NCBI GenBank assembly: GCA_963785235.1
Contig: CAWAUM010000013.1
Span: 64,001-128,000 of the forward strand
Reading direction: 5' to 3'
Source: an uncultured delta proteobacterium
Lineage (GTDB): Bacteria > Desulfobacterota > Desulfomonilia > UBA1062
Length of the DNA stretch: 64,000 nt
Part shown: positions 39,559 through 47,747 of the stretch, piece by piece
Layout of the letters: every line of letters starts with the position of its first letter
Position numbering within the stretch: position 1 is the first letter of the stretch
The notes under the pieces: model-generated
The model's database searches: none
Told to the model about the DNA's origin: nothing
The model's input: only the letters and a program-made list of their open reading frames with translations
Position numbers and translations under genes: made by a program

Positions 39559-39963
39559 TCAATTGGAACTTCTCTTCTTAGTTTTCATATATCCGGCCAG
39601 CCCGATTAATCCGGTACCCAGCAATATCATAGTGGCAGGCTCGGGTACGGGTGCAGGGGTATCATGATCATTCCTCAGGTTAAACAGGACTCTGTTAGAA
39701 TTCCCCCGGTTCGCAACAATAGTATTCCAAGGGTCCATGGCAGCGAAATTTCCCTGCGCACCTTCCCATAAGGGGGCGTCCCAATTCGTCCCGGACAAAG
39801 CCGGGATAAGGTTTGTATTAATGAATTGCTGAGGCCGAATGATATTGTACTCTACCGTGTAATTGACATAATTACGAAGATTGATCGGTGCCGCTTCAGC
39901 ATGAGTCAGGAAACTCGGAATTATCATAAGTGAAAGCAACAAAGTTATTCTCTTCATCTCCAT
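39559..39963 (-). CDS. Small PEP-CTERM sorting-domain protein
   Basis: Signal peptide plus [20 protein letters not shown] and a basic tail; AGGAGG RBS. Confidence 0.9.
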
Positions 39964-40078
39964 GTACCTCCTTTTTTTGAAAAACGAGGGAGGGATTTAG
40001 GGCTCCCTCCCTCAATAGAAATGAGGGGTTTAGCTTCTACCTTTTCTCTAGTAGTACTTTGTCTTTGAAGGGGTGTAA

Positions 40079-40094
40079 TTCAATAGGCATGCCA
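40079..40094 (-). promoter_or_regulatory. Putative sigma54 promoter of the PEP-CTERM gene
   Basis: TGGCATGCCTATTGAA, GG-N10-GA. Confidence 0.55.
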
Positions 40095-40179
40095 TAGCCA
40101 TCAATGGAAAAAACATCTATGATATCATTCTAGTACATATCCAAAGATTTCCATACCCGTAAAATAATTGGACGGATTG

Positions 40180-40216
40180 TCTTATGAGAAAGGATAAGTC
40201 CTTTTTAACAGGAATA
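40180..40216. promoter_or_regulatory. Tandem palindromic enhancer-like sites (UAS A)
   Basis: TCTT-N7-AGGA-N4-TCCT-N7-AGGAATA, with the same layout as 47711-47747. Confidence 0.65.
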
Positions 40217-40229
40217 CCGCTCACAGAAC

Positions 40230-40472
40230 TCATTGATGACTGGAAAGGGAGTGCTTCTTGAGCAAGGCGTATAACCTGGATCGTGAGAGGCCGGAGATCC
40301 TGCATGCCAGATCAACATTACCATCAGTTTGTCTCATAAGTTCAGATAGATAGACGTTCTCCATCTTCACAATGTATCGGTCTCGCACACCTTTGAGAGG
40401 ATGGAGGTCTGAATGCAGACTACGTTTCAAATCGGCAAAAATCCGGCTTGATAGAGATCTTGGTTTGTACAT
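40230..40472 (-). CDS. Stand-alone Fis-type HTH protein paralogous to the C-terminus of the adjacent sigma54 activator
   Basis: Shares YL.ELMRQT and an identical ACRISGLSRSRLYALLKKH with ORF 40520..41962. Confidence 0.7.
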   Translation of the reverse strand: MYKPRSLSSRIFADLKRSLHSDLHPLKGVRDRYIVKMENVYLSELMRQTDGNVDLACRISGLSRSRLYALLKKHSLSSHQ

Positions 40473-40483
40473 ATCAATGGAGT

Positions 40484-40499
40484 AACAAGTTATGTGCCA
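40484..40499 (-). promoter_or_regulatory. Putative sigma54 promoter with predicted +1 at ~40473
   Basis: TGGCACATAACTTGTT, GG-N10-GT; the predicted start site falls next to the ATG at 40472. Confidence 0.55.
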
Positions 40500-40519
40500 G
40501 CAATACTTCCTGATATTAT

Positions 40520-41962
40520 TCAGGTGATATTGTGTTTCTTCAACAAGGCATAGAGGCGCGAGCGTGACAATCCCGAGATCCTGCAGGCTGTCTCAATGTG
40601 TGTCTTAGTCTGCCTCATCAATTCCTGGAGATAGTGCTTCTCTATTTCTGCGATAGAATCTTCCCGCACTTCCTTGAGACTGGGAAGCGATGTGCTGGTG
40701 AAATCCCGGGTCGGTTTCTTCTTTTTGCCTGCAACGGCATTTTGTTTCACCTGCACATGAATATGATGGGGAAGGTGCTTGGGAACGAGGATTGAACTAT
40801 CTTGTGCAACAGTAATCGCGCTTTCGATTGCATGAATCAACTCTCTGACATTACCCGGCCATGAGTACTGCACGAGGGTATCACAGAAAGCGGCACTGAG
40901 GCGTTTCGGCTTCATGCCGGATTTTCTGGTTAGTCTGTTCAGGTACAGATCCGTCAGACCGAGAATATCTTCAGGACGCTCCCTGAGCGGGGGAATATGG
41001 ATGGTTATGGATTGCAGCCTGAAGAGAAGATCCTTCCTGAATCCGTCTGTTTCCACCATCTTGTCGAGATTCCGGTTGGTTGCGGATATAACCCTGAAAT
41101 CACTGTCCACCTCGCTCGATTTCCCCACAGGGCGGAAGCGGCCTTCCTGGAGGATTCGGAGGAAATTTTTCTGGGTGGCCAGGGGGAGTTCACCAACTTC
41201 GTCCAGAAAGAGGGTACCCTGGTGGGCCTGGGTAACAAGGCCGTGCTGTGATCTGTCCGCACCCGTATATGATCCCTTCTCATGGCCGAACAGAATGCTC
41301 TCCACCAGGTTCGGGGGCAATGCGGCACAGTCCACAATGACAAACTCATTTCCTGAACGCGCCGAGTTATTGTGGATCGAGCGTGCAAAGAGCTCCTTAC
41401 CTGTGCCTGTCTCACCCGTCAGCAGCACATTGGCCTCACTCTTAAAGGTCTTGCTCAATAATGCCAGACATTCTTTCATCCTGGGGCTCTTGGCGAATAT
41501 CCCCTCTTTCTCAAAATCAACAGCTTTGACTGGCTGTTTATTGCTCCTATGATAGATAACAACATCTTTGAGCAGTGTAGAGAGTTCGTTTTTTGAAAAG
41601 GGTTTTTCCAGGTAATCCCATGCCCCTTTGGAAAGGGCTGCCTCAACCGAATCCGGATCACCGTAACCGGTTATGACAATCACTTCCGGCCTGCCGATAT
41701 TCTGGGAGATTTGCGGGAGTTTCTCAATACCGTTTCCATCAGGCATATGCACATCGAGAAAAACGACATCATATGCGTCTGCGTGTGCCGCCCCGAGTCC
41801 ATCCTTCAAGGTCAAGGCTGTTGTGGTGGTATAGCCCAAGGTCTTGGCCACGTTGGCTATGGAATTACATACAAGGCTGTCATCATCAATGATGAGAATC
41901 TTTTCCTGATTATCTATAGGCACTTGAGAATAATATAGGCTTTCCATTGAGATGTAAAGCAC
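40520..41962 (-). CDS. NtrC-family sigma54-dependent response regulator (REC-AAA+-HTH)
   Basis: REC (IIDDD, FLDVHMPD), GETGTGKE, ESILFGHEKGSYTGA, LFLDEVG and WPGNVREL. Confidence 0.95.
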   Translation of the reverse strand: MLYISMESLYYSQVPIDNQEKILIIDDDSLVCNSIANVAKTLGYTTTTALTLKDGLGAAHADAYDVVFLDVHMPDGNGIEKLPQISQNIGRPEVIVITGYGDPDSVEAALSKGAWDYLEKPFSKNELSTLLKDVVIYHRSNKQPVKAVDFEKEGIFAKSPRMKECLALLSKTFKSEANVLLTGETGTGKELFARSIHNNSARSGNEFVIVDCAALPPNLVESILFGHEKGSYTGADRSQHGLVTQAHQGTLFLDEVGELPLATQKNFLRILQEGRFRPVGKSSEVDSDFRVISATNRNLDKMVETDGFRKDLLFRLQSITIHIPPLRERPEDILGLTDLYLNRLTRKSGMKPKRLSAAFCDTLVQYSWPGNVRELIHAIESAITVAQDSSILVPKHLPHHIHVQVKQNAVAGKKKKPTRDFTSTSLPSLKEVREDSIAEIEKHYLQELMRQTKTHIETACRISGLSRSRLYALLKKHNIT

Positions 41963-41964
41963 TC

Positions 41965-44900
41965 TTAAGCCAGTAAACGGCCTATGGCTTCTTGCATCTG
42001 GGAACGGGAAAAGGGTTTGAGAATGAACTCATTAATGCCGGTATTCTTTTCCTGCAGTTCCTGCATGATTTCTTCTGAGCCCGAGCAAAGTATTACCGGG
42101 ATGTCCTGACGGATCTGACGGATATGCCCTGCCAGTTCATGACCTTTCATCCGGGGCATGACCTGGTCCGTTATAACCAGGGAGAACATCTTCGGTTCGT
42201 CTCTGAAGATTTTGAGCGCCTCCTGGGGATCGGATGTTGATGTCACTTGATATCCGAGATGGATCAGCAACTGGTGGATGCTGCGTAAGTCACCGACATT
42301 GTCGTCTGCAAGGAGGATATGTTTTTCTCCATGACCTTGAGATTGCCTGAGCTGCCTATGGGCTTGATCCTGGGGATCAGTGTATTGAGGAAAATACACT
42401 TCGAATTTTGCCCCTTTCCCGGTATCGCTTGAGAGAAGTATCGATCCATTCGCATTCTTGACCAGTTCGTGCACTACAGCAAGCCCCAACCCGGTGCCCT
42501 TGCTTGACTTCTTGGTAGAAAAGAATGGATCGAATATCCTGTCCCTGATATCCGGGCTTATTCCGGTTCCGGTATCCCGGACTGTCAGTTTCAGATATTT
42601 TCCCGGCTTGAGGTCGGATACGAGGGCCGCGGTATAGGAAGCTATTTCAGTTTCCTTGAGGGAAACACCAAGAAATCCTTTGCCTGATTTCATGGCCTGG
42701 ACAGCATTATTGCACAGGTTGAGAATGAGTTGATGAATCTGGGTCTGGTCAACCCTGACAAGGCCTTCCCTTGCATTTATCCATTGTTTGAAGGTAATTC
42801 GTGAAGGGATCGACCTTTTCATGAGGTTAAGCGCATCCTGAACAACAGGACCTATGGTAATAGGCTTGCAGAAAGATCCCTTTCTGGAGCCGAACAGCTT
42901 TATCTGCCTGATGAGATTCTTCCCGAGATGGGCTGCATCAATGATCTGGTCCAAGTATTCCCGCTCCTGCGTTCCGTGAGGGAGGATATCCGAGATGAGT
43001 TCCGAATTGATGAGGATGGGCTGGAGCACGTTATTGAAGTCGTGGGCAATACCCCCTGCAAGCTTGCCCAGGGCCTCTATTTTCTGGGCTTGTATGAGCT
43101 GGTTTTCGAGCCTCTTCTTTTCTTCTTCGGCCAGCTTGCGTTCGGTTATATCGCGGGCCGCTGCAAATACGCCGAGCGCTCTGCCTTCCTGATCGTGATA
43201 GAGGGATGCGTTGTACAGGACAGGGGTAATGAGACCATCGTGATGAAGCATATCAAGGGGATAGTCCTGTATCTTTCCTTCACTGAATACCTGCTCATAT
43301 CCGGCACGGGCCTTGTCCGGTTCGGTGAAATAATCGGAAAAATCAGTGTTGATAAGCTCTCTTCGGCTGCGGCCTGTCACCTTTTCCGTAGCCATGTTCA
43401 CGTCCGTGATCCTGCCGTTGACATCAATGGTCACCAGGGGATCAAGGCTCGCCTCGATGAGGCTTCTGTTATAGGCGCCTGCCAGCCTTAAGGCATTCTC
43501 CGCCTTTTTGCGCTGGGTTATTTCAGCTACGAGTTGCCTGTTTCTGGCCTGCACTTCAGTTGTGCGTTCCTTTACGAGATCTTCCAGTTTATCCTTATGC
43601 CTGCATAATTCATCCTCCGCGAGTTTTCGCTGGGTAATGTCCATGAATATGACGGCAAACTGTTCCGGAGCAGGACGATAGGCAAATGCCTCATAGTGCC
43701 GATTGAGGACCGGAGAATAATTTTCAAAGTGCACAGGTTCTCCGGTGAGCGCGACAGAACCATAGGCCTTTACCCATTTTGGGTCATCATCAGGCAGAAC
43801 CTGCAGCATGGTCTTGCCCACCACATCTTCCCTTTTGAGGCCGGTGAGCCGTTCAAAGGCCGGGTTCGCATCGATGAATCGATAATCACAGGGTATGCCT
43901 TTCTCATCGCATATGATCTCGTGCAGGGCAAACCCCTCGGACATGGAACTGAAGAGGTGGTGGAAGCGCTGCTCGCTCTTCCTGAGGGCCTCCTCGGCTA
44001 TTATCCGCTTGCTTATATCTCCGTAGGTTATTGCAACGCCATATTCTTCCAGGGGTATGGGTGCAGCAGTGACATTGATCCAGGTAATGTCACCATTGCC
44101 TTTCACAATGCCCATTTCAACATTCTCCACAAGGCAGTTGTTTTTGAGTGCAATGACGCTGGCATATTCATCTTCGGGCATGTCACTGCCGTCTGGCCTG
44201 ATAACCCGCCATTCCTGACCTGCGATGCCCCTGTTTTCAAGTTCCTCCCGAGAGATCCCAAGCAACCGTTCAGCTTCCTTGCTGCTTTCGATAATGTTGC
44301 CAACTTTGTCTGTTATGGTGATCCCCAAAGGAAATGAGTTGAAGAGCACTTTGTATTTCGCGAGACTGATCTTATATTCCTTATCGATCTGCCTCTGTTT
44401 GGTGACATCATATGCAACCTCCCCCGCCCCCACCACAGTGCCATTGGCATCCCGCAGGGGTGTCTGGATCACGCTGTAAACGCGACGGTAGCGACCGGGA
44501 TCGCCGAATTCAATGGTCTTGATTACACTCTCACCACCCAGTATTCGGCCCCACGCCTCTACAGCGAGCTTCCGCTGCCCGGGCATATGGGCAAAAAGTT
44601 CGATCATGCTCATACCGATATGGATATCCTTGCCGGTGAGCCGCTTTAACTCTTCCTGATATGTTGTATTAAAGTAAGTGTAGCGGAAGTTTGTATCCAC
44701 GGCTGCGATAATCACTTCCGTTCCTCTCGTTATGGCCTCCAGCAGTTCGTGCGTCTGCTTCAGCTCCTTCTCAGAGTGTTTCCGTTCGGTGATGTCGCGG
44801 ATTATGATCTGGATGGCAGGCTCGCCCTGGAAGTCGATTGTGCCGCCCACGGTCTCCACATCGGTGATGCGACCATCCAGGCTCACCATTTTTGTTTCCC

Positions 44901-46149
44901 GTAATGGCGCTTTATGTTCAAGTTGAATCTGCATTATACGTGCTTCTATTGCAGCCCGGTCGTCTTGATGAATCAGGTCCAGAACTGTTCTGGTCTGCAA
45001 TTGTTTGAGTGTTCTGGCGCCATAGAGTTTCAGTGCAACCGAATTGGCATAGAGAAAATACCCGTCACGATGGACGATGATGCCGTCAGGGGATGATTCA
45101 ACCAGAGACCGGTAACGCACTTCGCTTTCACTCAGGGCAACCTGTGTCTGGATGCGCTGCATGGCTATAGCCACTTGATCGGCAACGGTCTTCATTATGG
45201 AGATCTCATCGCTTGAGAAGTGAGGACGGGTTCTGGTGCCGAAAGAGAGCGTGCCTATTACCCTGCCCTGGGCCAGGAGGGGATGGCAGCAATAGGCCTG
45301 GATCCCATAAGATTTTACCAGATTGGTCCTTGGATCAGCGGTACTGGCGATATCCTCGGCAATGATTCGGCTGCCCTCCTGGGCTGCACAGCCGCAGACA
45401 GCCACTCCGTAATCCAGCCATTCGATCTTCCGGGCTTCCTCCTCGGGGATGCCTGCAAATGCATTCAGGCGGAGACGCCCTGACTCATCATCCGCCAGGA
45501 AATTGAAGAATGCCTGACAGTCCAGGTGTTCCATCACCCGGGGGCACAGTTCATTGACAATAGCCTGCGGATCATCAGATTCCAGGAGCCGTTCTGCCGT
45601 CTCGGAAAGCATCTTGAACCGGGCTTCACTCTTTCTCAGTGATTCCTCGGCCAAGGTCCGTTCGGTAATATCATGCCAGACCGTGACCGAGCCTGTGATG
45701 CTGTCTCCCATACACATGGGACCCGAAGAGGCCTCCACTACCCTGTCGGTATTGTCTGACCTCTTTACCAGGAAGCATGCACCAGTCACCTTTTCTCCCC
45801 GCAGCGCCCGGGGTGTAGGCTGTTCCTCCAAAATGAACGACCGACCGTCCAGCCATCGGCAAGAAACACGCTTTATAATGTCTTTGATATTGAGGCCAAC
45901 AGGATCGAATCCATAATTTTCCAAGAACGACTGATTCGCCCGGAGAACATTCATGTCCGCGCCGTAGATGAGCACAGCATCGTTTTGAGCCGCAAAGACT
46001 GCCTCCAGCTCGGCAGCACGTTTTAAAAGCTCCTGCTCGAAATGGGCACACTCAGCATGCATCCTTTCGAGTTCAGCAATTCTCTGGCGTGCTTGTGCAA
46101 GCTCCTTCAGGAGTTGTACCTTTGATTTCTTTCCTTCAGACATGGCCAT
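41965..46149 (-). CDS. Cytoplasmic hybrid histidine kinase (PAS-GAF-multi-PAS-HisKA-HATPase-REC)
   Basis: Repeated DITER-type PAS ends, Cys-rich GAF (VCGC, YCCHP), LAGGIAHDFNN, GTGLGL and a C-terminal receiver (TDQVMP). Confidence 0.95.
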   Translation of the reverse strand: MAMSEGKKSKVQLLKELAQARQRIAELERMHAECAHFEQELLKRAAELEAVFAAQNDAVLIYGADMNVLRANQSFLENYGFDPVGLNIKDIIKRVSCRWLDGRSFILEEQPTPRALRGEKVTGACFLVKRSDNTDRVVEASSGPMCMGDSITGSVTVWHDITERTLAEESLRKSEARFKMLSETAERLLESDDPQAIVNELCPRVMEHLDCQAFFNFLADDESGRLRLNAFAGIPEEEARKIEWLDYGVAVCGCAAQEGSRIIAEDIASTADPRTNLVKSYGIQAYCCHPLLAQGRVIGTLSFGTRTRPHFSSDEISIMKTVADQVAIAMQRIQTQVALSESEVRYRSLVESSPDGIIVHRDGYFLYANSVALKLYGARTLKQLQTRTVLDLIHQDDRAAIEARIMQIQLEHKAPLRETKMVSLDGRITDVETVGGTIDFQGEPAIQIIIRDITERKHSEKELKQTHELLEAITRGTEVIIAAVDTNFRYTYFNTTYQEELKRLTGKDIHIGMSMIELFAHMPGQRKLAVEAWGRILGGESVIKTIEFGDPGRYRRVYSVIQTPLRDANGTVVGAGEVAYDVTKQRQIDKEYKISLAKYKVLFNSFPLGITITDKVGNIIESSKEAERLLGISREELENRGIAGQEWRVIRPDGSDMPEDEYASVIALKNNCLVENVEMGIVKGNGDITWINVTAAPIPLEEYGVAITYGDISKRIIAEEALRKSEQRFHHLFSSMSEGFALHEIICDEKGIPCDYRFIDANPAFERLTGLKREDVVGKTMLQVLPDDDPKWVKAYGSVALTGEPVHFENYSPVLNRHYEAFAYRPAPEQFAVIFMDITQRKLAEDELCRHKDKLEDLVKERTTEVQARNRQLVAEITQRKKAENALRLAGAYNRSLIEASLDPLVTIDVNGRITDVNMATEKVTGRSRRELINTDFSDYFTEPDKARAGYEQVFSEGKIQDYPLDMLHHDGLITPVLYNASLYHDQEGRALGVFAAARDITERKLAEEEKKRLENQLIQAQKIEALGKLAGGIAHDFNNVLQPILINSELISDILPHGTQEREYLDQIIDAAHLGKNLIRQIKLFGSRKGSFCKPITIGPVVQDALNLMKRSIPSRITFKQWINAREGLVRVDQTQIHQLILNLCNNAVQAMKSGKGFLGVSLKETEIASYTAALVSDLKPGKYLKLTVRDTGTGISPDIRDRIFDPFFSTKKSSKGTGLGLAVVHELVKNANGSILLSSDTGKGAKFEVYFPQYTDPQDQAHRQLRQSQGHGEKHILLADDNVGDLRSIHQLLIHLGYQVTSTSDPQEALKIFRDEPKMFSLVITDQVMPRMKGHELAGHIRQIRQDIPVILCSGSEEIMQELQEKNTGINEFILKPFSRSQMQEAIGRLLA

Positions 46150-46433
46150 GCAAACCACCACCCATTGTAGTTATTCTTCATGATGTTCAATGGGGATTCC
46201 CCATTACTCAGTCCCTTAAAAGCAATTAACACTGCATCAAGCAAAACAGGACAATCAACATGAAACCTGGTAAAGAGATATTATAGTACGGTTTCAAGGG
46301 AATGGAATATGTGCAAAAGGATTTTATCTTGATTGTTACCCCATGACCTGGATTGCATGGTTATTGAATCCCCAGCCCATACCCTCATCACCCTGGAAAC
46401 AGTCGAATCATATGATAATGATCACCACAACTT

Positions 46434-47219
46434 TCAGTTCTGAATCTCTCCCTTATGCATATAACCAATCCGACAGGTTCTTTGCGCCTGGGAGGAATCA
46501 AGGGTGTTCGACTTAAAAAAACTACCTGCCTGATCAACAAAAACCTGTTTCAGCTTTTCCATAGATCTTGTCTGGATCTGCCTCACGCGTTCCCTGCTCA
46601 CACCGAGTTGCATTCCAATCTCTTTGAGCTTTACAGGAGGATCTGAAAAATATCGCTGTTTGAGGACAGAGACCTCTCTTTGTGACAGGAAGGAAAAACA
46701 GTGCTGGAGCAGGGTTGAAATGTTATATGATGCCTCCCTGCCATTATAGAGTATCTCAGGGTCCGTACCATCGGTTACAAAATCTATCCACCGATCCTTG
46801 TCATTATCATCCTTACCAAGATGTTCATCCAGTGAGAACAGATTCTTGGCATGACTCAGGCTTCCGGTATTCACCTTTCCGCTCTTGTTCAAGAAGGCCT
46901 TGATGAAGGCCTCTATCCACCAGACCGCATAGTAGATAAATGGTATTCCGCGTTCAGGATCGAAACGGTTCAGTGCTTTTATCAGCCCAAGATTTCCTTC
47001 CTGAATAATCTCGAGACAATTATGACCGCAATAAAAATATTTCCTGCTCACCTTCACCACAAACTTCAAGTTAGATTGGAGTATCTGCTGCCCGGCAGTT
47101 TCATCTCCCTTCTGATACCGCTTTGCCAGTTCAAATTCCTTCTCGTGGGTAAGGGTCGAGTAGTGCTGTATCTGCCGGTAGTACTGCAGAAAATCTCCAT
47201 AATCAAACAATTTTTCCAT
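46434..47219 (-). CDS. RpoH-like alternative sigma70 factor with domain 3 largely missing
   Basis: Region 1.2, SNLKFVVKV, IQEGNLGL, FDPERG..YYAVWWI, and region 4 LKEIG..LGVSRERVRQI. Confidence 0.88.
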   Translation of the reverse strand: MEKLFDYGDFLQYYRQIQHYSTLTHEKEFELAKRYQKGDETAGQQILQSNLKFVVKVSRKYFYCGHNCLEIIQEGNLGLIKALNRFDPERGIPFIYYAVWWIEAFIKAFLNKSGKVNTGSLSHAKNLFSLDEHLGKDDNDKDRWIDFVTDGTDPEILYNGREASYNISTLLQHCFSFLSQREVSVLKQRYFSDPPVKLKEIGMQLGVSRERVRQIQTRSMEKLKQVFVDQAGSFFKSNTLDSSQAQRTCRIGYMHKGEIQN

Positions 47220-47252
47220 GAAGATCCCCTTCTCTTTTGTGTTGTAACATCA

Positions 47253-47525
47253 TCAAATTATAAACAATTCAGCATATTTTTTTCTGATGTCCAGGGTATT
47301 TCTGAATCTGATCTGTCCCGACTCAAACATGTGGGCCACCCTTTCTATTGCAGAAGAGGTATGACCATGATTATTCGGCCTTTGACCATCAACGCCCTTC
47401 TCAGCCCTTGATTGATTGCCCTGTTCTGAATCAATGACTGTCATGAGATCGTACAGGGTAGTGGTTATGGTTGAGGTCGGTAAAGAGTTATGTGATCCTG
47501 TTTCATTGAGCGTATTCATTGGCAA
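47253..47525 (-). CDS. Small hypothetical protein
   Basis: GGAGG RBS; TTTLYDLM...VAHMFESGQIRF; sits between a sigma54 promoter and the sigma gene. Confidence 0.7.
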   Translation of the reverse strand: MPMNTLNETGSHNSLPTSTITTTLYDLMTVIDSEQGNQSRAEKGVDGQRPNNHGHTSSAIERVAHMFESGQIRFRNTLDIRKKYAELFII

Positions 47526-47606
47526 CCTCCCGTTGAATAAGATGAAAACCTGACATCGTTTTCAATGACTCCACATGAACATTCTTATCTCACAGACATA
47601 GACGTA

Positions 47607-47622
47607 TACAATTGGTGTGCCA
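47607..47622 (-). promoter_or_regulatory. Putative sigma54 promoter for the small protein-sigma factor operon
   Basis: TGGCACACCAATTGTA, GG-N10-GT. Confidence 0.6.
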
Positions 47623-47710
47623 CTGGTTGGTATTTTTTATTTATTATTTGGTGTCAATATGTTACAAGCACTCATATCCTGATTGATTTTCTTTGTACTG
47701 TCACTATCTG

Positions 47711-47747
47711 TCTTGCTCAACAGGACTAATCCATCTTCACAGGAATA
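47711..47747. promoter_or_regulatory. Tandem palindromic enhancer-like sites (UAS B)
   Basis: TCTT-N7-AGGA-N4-TCCA-N7-AGGAATA; a possible third site TCCA-N7-CGGA at 47753-47767. Confidence 0.65.

Follow-up and report, generated by a model that had tools for sequence, protein, structure and literature searches.

A small gene derived from the DNA-binding domain of a neighbouring sigma-54 activator carries a conserved, putative sigma-54 promoter at its start codon

The DNA analyzed here (the window) is a stretch of 64,000 nucleotides from the genome of an uncultured delta proteobacterium. It contains, at positions 40230-40472 (-), a short gene with an ATG start codon and its stop codon at 40230-40232, which codes for a protein of 80 amino acids consisting of a HTH_8 DNA-binding domain only. 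A gap of 47 nt separates it from the upstream gene of a response-regulator bEBP (40520-41962, -), its parent paralogue, which carries REC, AAA+ sigma-54 interaction (PF00158, 214.7 bits), AAA lid and HTH_8 domains. Upstream from the bEBP gene lies that of a hybrid PAS/GAF histidine kinase (41965-46161, -), presumed from Pfam and synteny to be the partner of the bEBP. The genes of p90, a protein with no Pfam family (47253-47525, -), and of a sigma-70-family factor (46434-47219, -) are found upstream from the kinase (47525-46434), and the small gene is followed by a gene for a PEP-CTERM protein (39559-39963, -).

Pfam gave a single domain for the small protein, HTH_8 (PF02954, Fis-family helix-turn-helix; residues 37-73, 24.9 bits, cut-off 22); PF00158, by which a bEBP is recognized, was absent. 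About 22 residues at the N-terminus have no counterpart in the bEBP. This part of the protein is conserved, reading KPSFxQIISK in most members of the family, and the family-wide tail is SRHM or SSHQ.

The predicted structure of the monomer has four helices (residues 7-18, 24-48, 53-60 and 64-73), with pLDDT above 90 over residues 30-75. A search of the PDB with a profile of the small-protein family (A1) matched Fis (E 0.0048), and Fis was also the best Foldseek match of the model (probability 1.0, E 0.03, TM ~0.57). When compared with the NtrC4 DNA-binding domain, the model gave an rmsd of 1.2 A over 50 residues. A homodimer model scored 0.57, against 0.16 for the best control, and reached the mark set for this score, although this may reflect mere likeness to the solved Fis and NtrC dimers; in the calibration, 20 of 30 solved pairs and 1 of 23 single chains attained it. 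At least 75% of the contacts were common to three runs, with a partner pLDDT of at least 71, and the predicted interface comprises residues 23-48 and 59-62. The small protein is predicted, in fold as in assembly, to be a Fis-like dimer.

Within its own genome the neighbouring bEBP is the sole close relative of the small protein. BLASTP aligned residues 21-77 with residues 424-480 at the extreme C-terminus of the bEBP (34 of 57 identical, or 60%; E 7e-20); at the DNA level, 102 of 171 nt were identical over the 57 aligned codons. Both proteins contain the run of 19 residues ACRISGLSRSRLYALLKKH, for which 11 of the 19 codons differ, every difference being synonymous (42 of 57 nt identical). The initial annotation had given the same count of residues and codons, confirmed here on recounting, and had excluded a recent duplication of DNA; the latter claim is borne out by the synonymous divergence and by the dN/dS values and the single tree group described below.

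The recognition helix SRSRLYALL was identical between the small protein and its bEBP in 13 of 13 pairs, and turn and helix together (SG[LIV]SRSRLYALL) were the same in all 13. The small protein and the bEBP should therefore read the same DNA; since the helix is invariant, its covariation with the binding sites gives no signal. A conserved R32-Y33 is specific to the small proteins, the bEBPs having E-[AD] at these positions.

For a tree (65 columns; inner forks weak), 16 small proteins were combined with the DNA-binding domains of 14 neighbouring and 7 other bEBPs. The small proteins formed one group apart from the bEBP domains (support 91/81, 94% of bootstrap trees), which suggests that the domain was copied once, long ago, and then diverged alongside the bEBP. 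As judged from these sequences, the small protein is an old, single derivation from the C-terminal domain of the activator that has retained the same recognition helix.

Several searches were performed for relatives of the small protein. In a word-index protein search, 26 of 28 candidates had E values of 0.001 or lower, and 12 of these 26 were proteins of 78-90 amino acids with at least 86% query coverage and 50-93% identity. A scan of genomes, one per species, and a scan of metagenome contigs returned 79 and 80 loci, respectively, of which the 35 with a match beginning at query residue 14 or earlier were inspected: 19 contained a short frame of up to 118 codons, 13 were full-length bEBPs and 3 were other structures (a contig-end fragment, a 185-codon frame cut by the contig end and an unrelated 115-codon frame). 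A profile search against 1.84 billion representatives gave 1880 matches at E values up to 0.001; among the best 150, the whole profile was matched by three (P0010, P0027 and P0028, representatives at 50% identity) and the remainder matched the domain alone, mostly as bEBP ends or fragments. One representative, P0029, has 2242 amino acids and contains 15 separate stretches that match the helix-turn-helix region of the profile.

The species-level genome scan yielded 13 loci with the stand-alone form, all in metagenome-assembled genomes, whose titles name Desulfomonilia, Syntrophaceae or Deltaproteobacteria and, in one case, Bacteriovoracaceae. The family is narrow in distribution. Since all the genomes are metagenome-assembled and many loci are related, the counts given here and below are not counts of independent events.

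Orthologous coding sequences (n = 18, including those of the window and of genomes G018 and G005) were exactly 80 codons long in 17 cases and 79 codons in one. Nei-Gojobori dN/dS was 0.06-0.20 in the nine pairs with unsaturated dS; in the other seven pairs synonymous sites were saturated and pN was 0.18-0.37. Pooled over seven pairs, pN/pS was 0.35 for codons 2-22, the part with no bEBP counterpart, 0.17 for the long helix (codons 23-50), 0.064 for the helix-turn-helix (codons 51-75) and 0.08 for the five-residue tail. An in-frame stop 1-3 codons upstream from the ATG makes an earlier start impossible in two loci. By these measures the reading frame at 40230-40472 is a functional gene, real and under selection. 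The purifying selection proposed in the initial annotation is thus seen also in the N-terminal codons that the bEBP lacks, and the homologues of about 80 amino acids beside bEBP genes for which it had suggested a search were found (79-80 amino acids, 17 distinct loci).

In 17 of 19 related loci (the window not counted) the gene preceding the small gene encodes an orthologue of the bEBP (62-95% identity), with a PAS/GAF kinase upstream from this orthologue wherever the locus extends far enough. The conserved cluster is composed of histidine kinase, bEBP, small gene and sigma-54 target. There are two exceptions: in G005 the gene upstream from the small gene is divergent and unrelated and no upstream bEBP is present, and in locus L104 a sigma-70-family gene ends just upstream. 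The usual order in most genomes is small gene, p90, a Lon-like protein and a sigma-70-family factor; in the genome of the window, where p90 and the sigma factor gene are upstream from the kinase, the PEP-CTERM gene takes the place next to the small gene.

An intact small gene was found in 4 of the 41 genomes searched, that of the window included (G000, G011, G005 and G018). In G002 the bEBP gene, whose product is 89% identical, runs straight into rpsU, and the small and PEP-CTERM genes are missing. In G003 and G004 the bEBP gene is followed directly by the tandem dyads described below, a promoter and the PEP-CTERM gene, with no small gene. G024 has a remnant (L015 1357-1455, -) made up of the final 33 codons, including the family tail, with neither ATG nor promoter; downstream from it are tandem dyads, a promoter and the sigma factor gene. 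None of the relatives had a second full-length bEBP at the position of the small gene, the finding that would have spoken against an independent small gene: the position is occupied by the same gene, by nothing or by the 33-codon remnant. That relatives keep bEBP, dyads and promoter where the small gene is lacking suggests that the circuit works without the small protein. As far as gene content tells, such dispensability is more easily explained for a modulator than for an obligatory co-activator.

The start codon of the small gene is preceded by an element of sigma-54 type, TGGCAC-N5-TTGT (TGGCACATAACTTGT, 40485-40499, -), recognized by motif and by conservation. Its -24 element begins 20 nt downstream from the bEBP stop codon. 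Exactly 12 nt, TACTCCATTGAT, separate the -12 element from the ATG at 40472, and no purine-rich Shine-Dalgarno sequence is present in these 12 nt. The element, the ATG next to the deduced transcription start and the lack of a Shine-Dalgarno sequence are as the initial annotation had described them. The -24 element and the spacing match TGGCAC-N5-TTGC exactly, and the -12 element is TTGT, without the consensus C; among the family loci, TTGC is found in G005 only.

In the 64-kb window the motif TGGYAY-N5-TTGY was counted four times, where 1.03 would be expected, and 2 of 100 shuffled sequences reached four. With such a count a single site proves little by itself; it is the conservation ahead of the ATG of the family that lifts the motif above chance. 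TGG[CT]A[CT]-N5-TTG[CT] was found upstream from the ATG in 20 of 20 family loci, corresponding to 17 of 17 distinct sequences, always at 12-16 nt; for two of the loci the start had been moved two codons further upstream, to an in-frame ATG, and this restored the 80-residue length. The 15 motif columns held 1.61 bits per column, the corresponding figures being 0.26 for the 30 nt before them and 0.48 for the 22 nt after them, and the element was the sole strict match in 16 of 17 fetched loci scanned (2.2-8.2 kb long). The spacer between the bEBP stop codon and the -24 element varied from 12 to 366 nt and could not be aligned. Motif and spacing to the ATG were still kept in G005, where no bEBP lies upstream. 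The genome of the window contains rpoN (TIGR02395, 445.9 bits, above the cut-off; G000:C11:185691-187028).

The spacer of G011 (L006 1228-1475) measured 244 nt from the bEBP stop codon to the -24 element, against 20 nt in the window (within 40473-40519), and contained an inverted repeat with arms of about 20 nt by eye. As the two sequences show, DNA has been inserted or deleted here in one of two genomes with 95% identical bEBPs.

The start codon was ATG in all 17 distinct sequences, and neither GGAG nor AGGA was seen when the 12-16 nt after the -12 element were read by eye in these 17 sequences. In contrast, AGGAGG and a leader of about 85-115 nt were found for both p90 and the PEP-CTERM gene. 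In the usual numbering of sigma-54 promoters the C of the GC lies at -12, which would place the transcription start 1-5 nt before the A of the ATG in the family, and at this A or 1 nt before it in the window. A leaderless or nearly leaderless sigma-54 transcript of the small gene is strongly suggested, and the promoter and leaderless layout put forward in the initial annotation gain support from the 12-16 nt spacing kept in 17 of 17 distinct sequences. Among public sequencing runs no RNA run was found to contain the sequence: two RNA runs of a shared study had 0.00 of its words, and the best DNA runs 0.36 or less. Genome-wide, 151 sigma-54 motifs were considered; for 7 of them the ATG of an ORF encoding at least 50 amino acids lay 9-19 nt downstream, which is about chance by a rough estimate and so teaches nothing on the use of this layout elsewhere in the genome. 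A sigma-70-like site at 40543-40515 was at chance level (2 found against 2.0 expected), and Rfam gave two sub-threshold chance matches only over 39800-40700.

Downstream from the small gene, starting 16 nt past its stop codon and 119 nt before the next sigma-54 promoter, lie tandem dyads, TCCTGTTAAAAAGGA-N4-TCCTTTCTCATAAGA (40180-40213, -), which by their conservation are a candidate enhancer (UAS). The promoter that follows, P2 (TGGCAT-N5-TTGAAT, 40078-40094, -), is homologous to the p90 promoter of other genomes and serves the PEP-CTERM gene, which has a normal leader with the Shine-Dalgarno sequence AAGGAGG. A YGGCAY-N5-TTGAAT promoter was present downstream from the small gene in 16 of 17 loci, L103 being the exception, and across loci a conserved pair of dyads, TCCY-N7-RRGA, 4 nt apart, is found about 85-120 nt upstream from this promoter. 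A terminator-like hairpin of 11 pairs followed by TTTTT (39985-40014, -) lies in the PEP-CTERM leader, between P2 and the Shine-Dalgarno sequence with the ATG at 39963; it is found in G011 as well, has no Rfam match and may be an attenuator or a 5' stabiliser.

A second pair of tandem dyads in the window, TCCT-N7-TGGA-N4-TCCT-N7-AAGA (47711-47744, -), precedes a sigma-54-type promoter, TGGCAC-N5-TTGT (47608-47622, -), of the operon of p90 and the sigma-70-family factor. A regular expression for the tandem dyads matched seven times in the 3.9-Mb genome, and in four of the seven a sigma-54-type promoter was found 108-122 nt from the start of the pair: at 40213 of the window, ahead of the PEP-CTERM gene; at 47744, ahead of the p90 and sigma factor genes; at G000:C5:577203 (-), ahead of genes for a 126-amino-acid cysteine-rich protein and a hemerythrin-domain protein; and at G000:C11:215641 (-), ahead of genes for a small protein and a 4Fe-4S ferredoxin. 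A possible link of the C11 protein to p90 was dropped, no BLASTP alignment being obtained. The TCCT-N7-AGGA dyads, newly identified here, are probably the enhancer of this regulon.

A dyad with at most one mismatch was found at +280 to +294 from the -24 element of the small gene, that is, 10-25 nt past its stop codon, in 15 of 17 loci, against a background of 0.77 per kb over all loci. This dyad is kept even where the next promoter and its own dyads sit about 290 nt further downstream. No conserved dyad was found upstream from the small-gene promoter in the 17 loci. An upstream enhancer was rejected on the grounds that the spacers are unrelated in length and sequence and the dyads in them sporadic, for example at -186 in the window (a match in coding sequence) and at -410 in G011, with at most one mismatch. 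Activation of the small-gene promoter would thus need the dyads about 280 nt downstream, which is unusual.

The products encoded behind these promoters (hemerythrin-domain, 4Fe-4S ferredoxin and cysteine-rich proteins), together with a desulfoferrodoxin gene that follows p90 in G018 (L007 239-670), hint at an oxygen or redox stress response. The placement of a sigma-70-family gene behind a sigma-54-type promoter and tandem dyads (46434-47744, -) has the form of a sigma cascade under a two-component bEBP, which we take to be reminiscent of Rrp2-RpoN-RpoS in Borrelia. The p90 protein is conserved (88-102 amino acids, motif ITTTLYDLM) and its gene always stands behind a sigma-54-type promoter in the cluster; in the window its true start is probably the ATG at 47519, after GGGAGG. 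Every promoter assigned to the bEBP regulon has TTGT or TTGA at -12, without the consensus C. The bEBP loop is GSYTGA, as it is in the G018 orthologue, against the consensus GAFTGA; GAYTGA is described as natural in HrpS (PMC3105312).

Like Fis (factor for inversion stimulation), a nucleoid protein of the gamma-proteobacteria, the small protein is predicted to be a small homodimer with the same helical DNA-binding fold. Fis carries an N-terminal arm that activates invertases. Unlike Fis, with its 98 amino acids, the small protein has 80, and its model shows an N-terminal helix and no strand where the arm of Fis would be. No Fis model was among its NCBIfam matches, and its identity to Fis was 22-26%. 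Its gene, again unlike that of Fis, is tied to one two-component bEBP cluster, to a sigma-54 promoter and to a handful of Desulfomonilia-like genomes. The small protein is an independent derivation within the HTH_8 superfamily, neither a Fis orthologue nor a bEBP. Fis is itself said, in a proposal going back to Morett and Bork in 1998, to derive from the C-terminal domain of NtrC, which is the nearest precedent for the origin of the small protein. The predicted fold is the same as in the DNA-binding domains of the NtrC family (NtrC4, 3e7l and 4fth; NtrC1, 4l5e); unlike these, the small protein is not tethered to an AAA+ ring and has its own conserved N-terminus and tail.

The anti-activators NifL, PspA, FleN and HrpV work through protein contact with the AAA+ or regulatory domain of a bEBP and have no relationship to its DNA-binding domain. 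The outcome proposed for the small protein is the same as theirs, a partner protein limiting a bEBP. MphX, a repressor of MphR-dependent activation, was considered as a truncated-bEBP repressor and rejected: it is described as an unrelated protein of 293 amino acids.

In one report a leaderless mRNA is defined by a 5' untranslated region of at most 5 nt (PMC12754779), and the region deduced from sequence for the small gene would be of this size. Another states that all 171 leaderless starts of S. meliloti are AUG and that leaderless translation requires AUG (PMC3616915); the start of the small gene is strictly AUG, with no Shine-Dalgarno sequence. A leaderless mRNA described in the first report has a sigma-A-type promoter (PMC12754779), unlike the sigma-54-type promoter of the small gene. 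In the literature searched, which left subscription journals mostly outside and was in part available as extracts, no bEBP DNA-binding-domain decoy and no sigma-54-driven leaderless gene were described, which does not prove their absence; nothing combined leaderless, sigma-54 and enhancer-binding protein in the texts so covered.

The reading that we prefer is feedback by competition at the dyads. The kinase would phosphorylate the bEBP, which would assemble on the tandem dyads and open the sigma-54 promoters of a small regulon. The promoter of the small gene would also respond, the simplest source of its activation being the dyads just past the stop codon of that gene. The resulting leaderless mRNA would yield a dimer able to occupy the same TCCT-N7-AGGA dyads but having no ATPase, and this occupancy would damp the output of the activator. 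The result would be negative feedback, provided that the small-gene promoter, too, is fired by the activator from the downstream dyads. All steps from the assembly of the bEBP on the dyads onwards are ones that we infer, among them the transcription start, leaderless translation, the identity of the protein that binds the dyads and the sign of the effect. A dominant-negative anti-activator role, already suggested in the initial annotation, would agree with a recognition helix identical to that of the bEBP and with a gene that close relatives can do without. To the account as a whole (an old Fis-like copy, its own near-leaderless sigma-54 promoter and competition at the dyads that damps the activator) we assign a probability of about 50%.

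The opposite sign of action has to be considered: a dimer bound at the dyads, or to the DNA between enhancer and promoter, could bend it as Fis or IHF do and aid the contact between the activator ring and the sigma-54 holoenzyme. Such a positive architectural co-factor would suit the predicted Fis-like fold and the distance of about 110-120 nt between tandem dyads and promoters, over which looping is needed. Yet close relatives keep bEBP, dyads and promoter with no small gene, so that the protein is not required, and with a helix identical to that of the activator it would be expected to compete for the activator's sites and not to bind next to them; we regard this role as rather unlikely. The activator could also be disturbed by pairing instead of by competition for DNA, the long helix of the small protein engaging the DNA-binding domain of the bEBP in mixed dimers that upset the enhancer-bound assembly. 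The predicted interface at residues 23-48 falls within the helix common to the bEBP (LxxLKxVR...YLxELM), and the two proteins agree at several positions of the interface; the R32-Y33 of the small proteins, in that very helix, may however favour self-pairing, and this mode of action appears quite improbable.

A different doubt concerns the -24/-12 motif, which might be a roadblock formed by the sigma-54 holoenzyme or a remnant, the small gene being translated independently of a Shine-Dalgarno sequence from read-through mRNA of the kinase and bEBP genes. No terminator is present in the 47 nt between bEBP stop codon and ATG in the window, the -12 element departs from the consensus and no upstream enhancer was found, all of which would agree with read-through. 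It is difficult to reconcile with a motif held at 12-16 nt from the ATG while its distance to the bEBP stop codon varies from 12 to 366 nt, and with G005, in which motif and spacing persist with no bEBP upstream; we consider it unlikely. That the gene is a functionless, decaying stump of a deleted second bEBP, the alternative offered in the initial annotation, is rejected here as extremely improbable: a true remnant does exist in G024, reduced to 33 codons with neither ATG nor promoter, but the small gene has a length fixed at 80 amino acids, a dN/dS of about 0.1, a constrained N-terminus with no bEBP counterpart, and a promoter and synteny conserved across genera.

Competition at the dyads could be taken further. 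An activator with its own decoy, made from a leaderless sigma-54 transcript, with an enhancer downstream from the 243-nt gene that is common to the next promoter, so that the response shuts itself off, is a possibility that we put forward tentatively. If true, activation would at once make the competitor, with no recognition of a ribosome-binding site, and the locus would contain a built-in pulse generator. Both a sigma-54-driven leaderless gene and a bEBP decoy consisting of a DNA-binding domain would then be described for the first time. Should the protein be a mere helper, or the mRNA have a leader, the finding reduces to a new and narrow family of small Fis-like proteins.

Sigma-54 activators are normally restrained through their ATPase or sensor domains, and a conserved decoy made from the activator's own DNA-binding domain would shape the response by another route, at very little cost. 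With a sigma-54 promoter directly at the start codon, promoters of this tightly switched class would prove able to feed leaderless translation. The locus holds a complete small circuit from an uncultured lineage (kinase, activator, enhancer dyads, four target promoters, an alternative sigma factor and the small protein), the parts of which could be rebuilt in a laboratory host with sigma-54.
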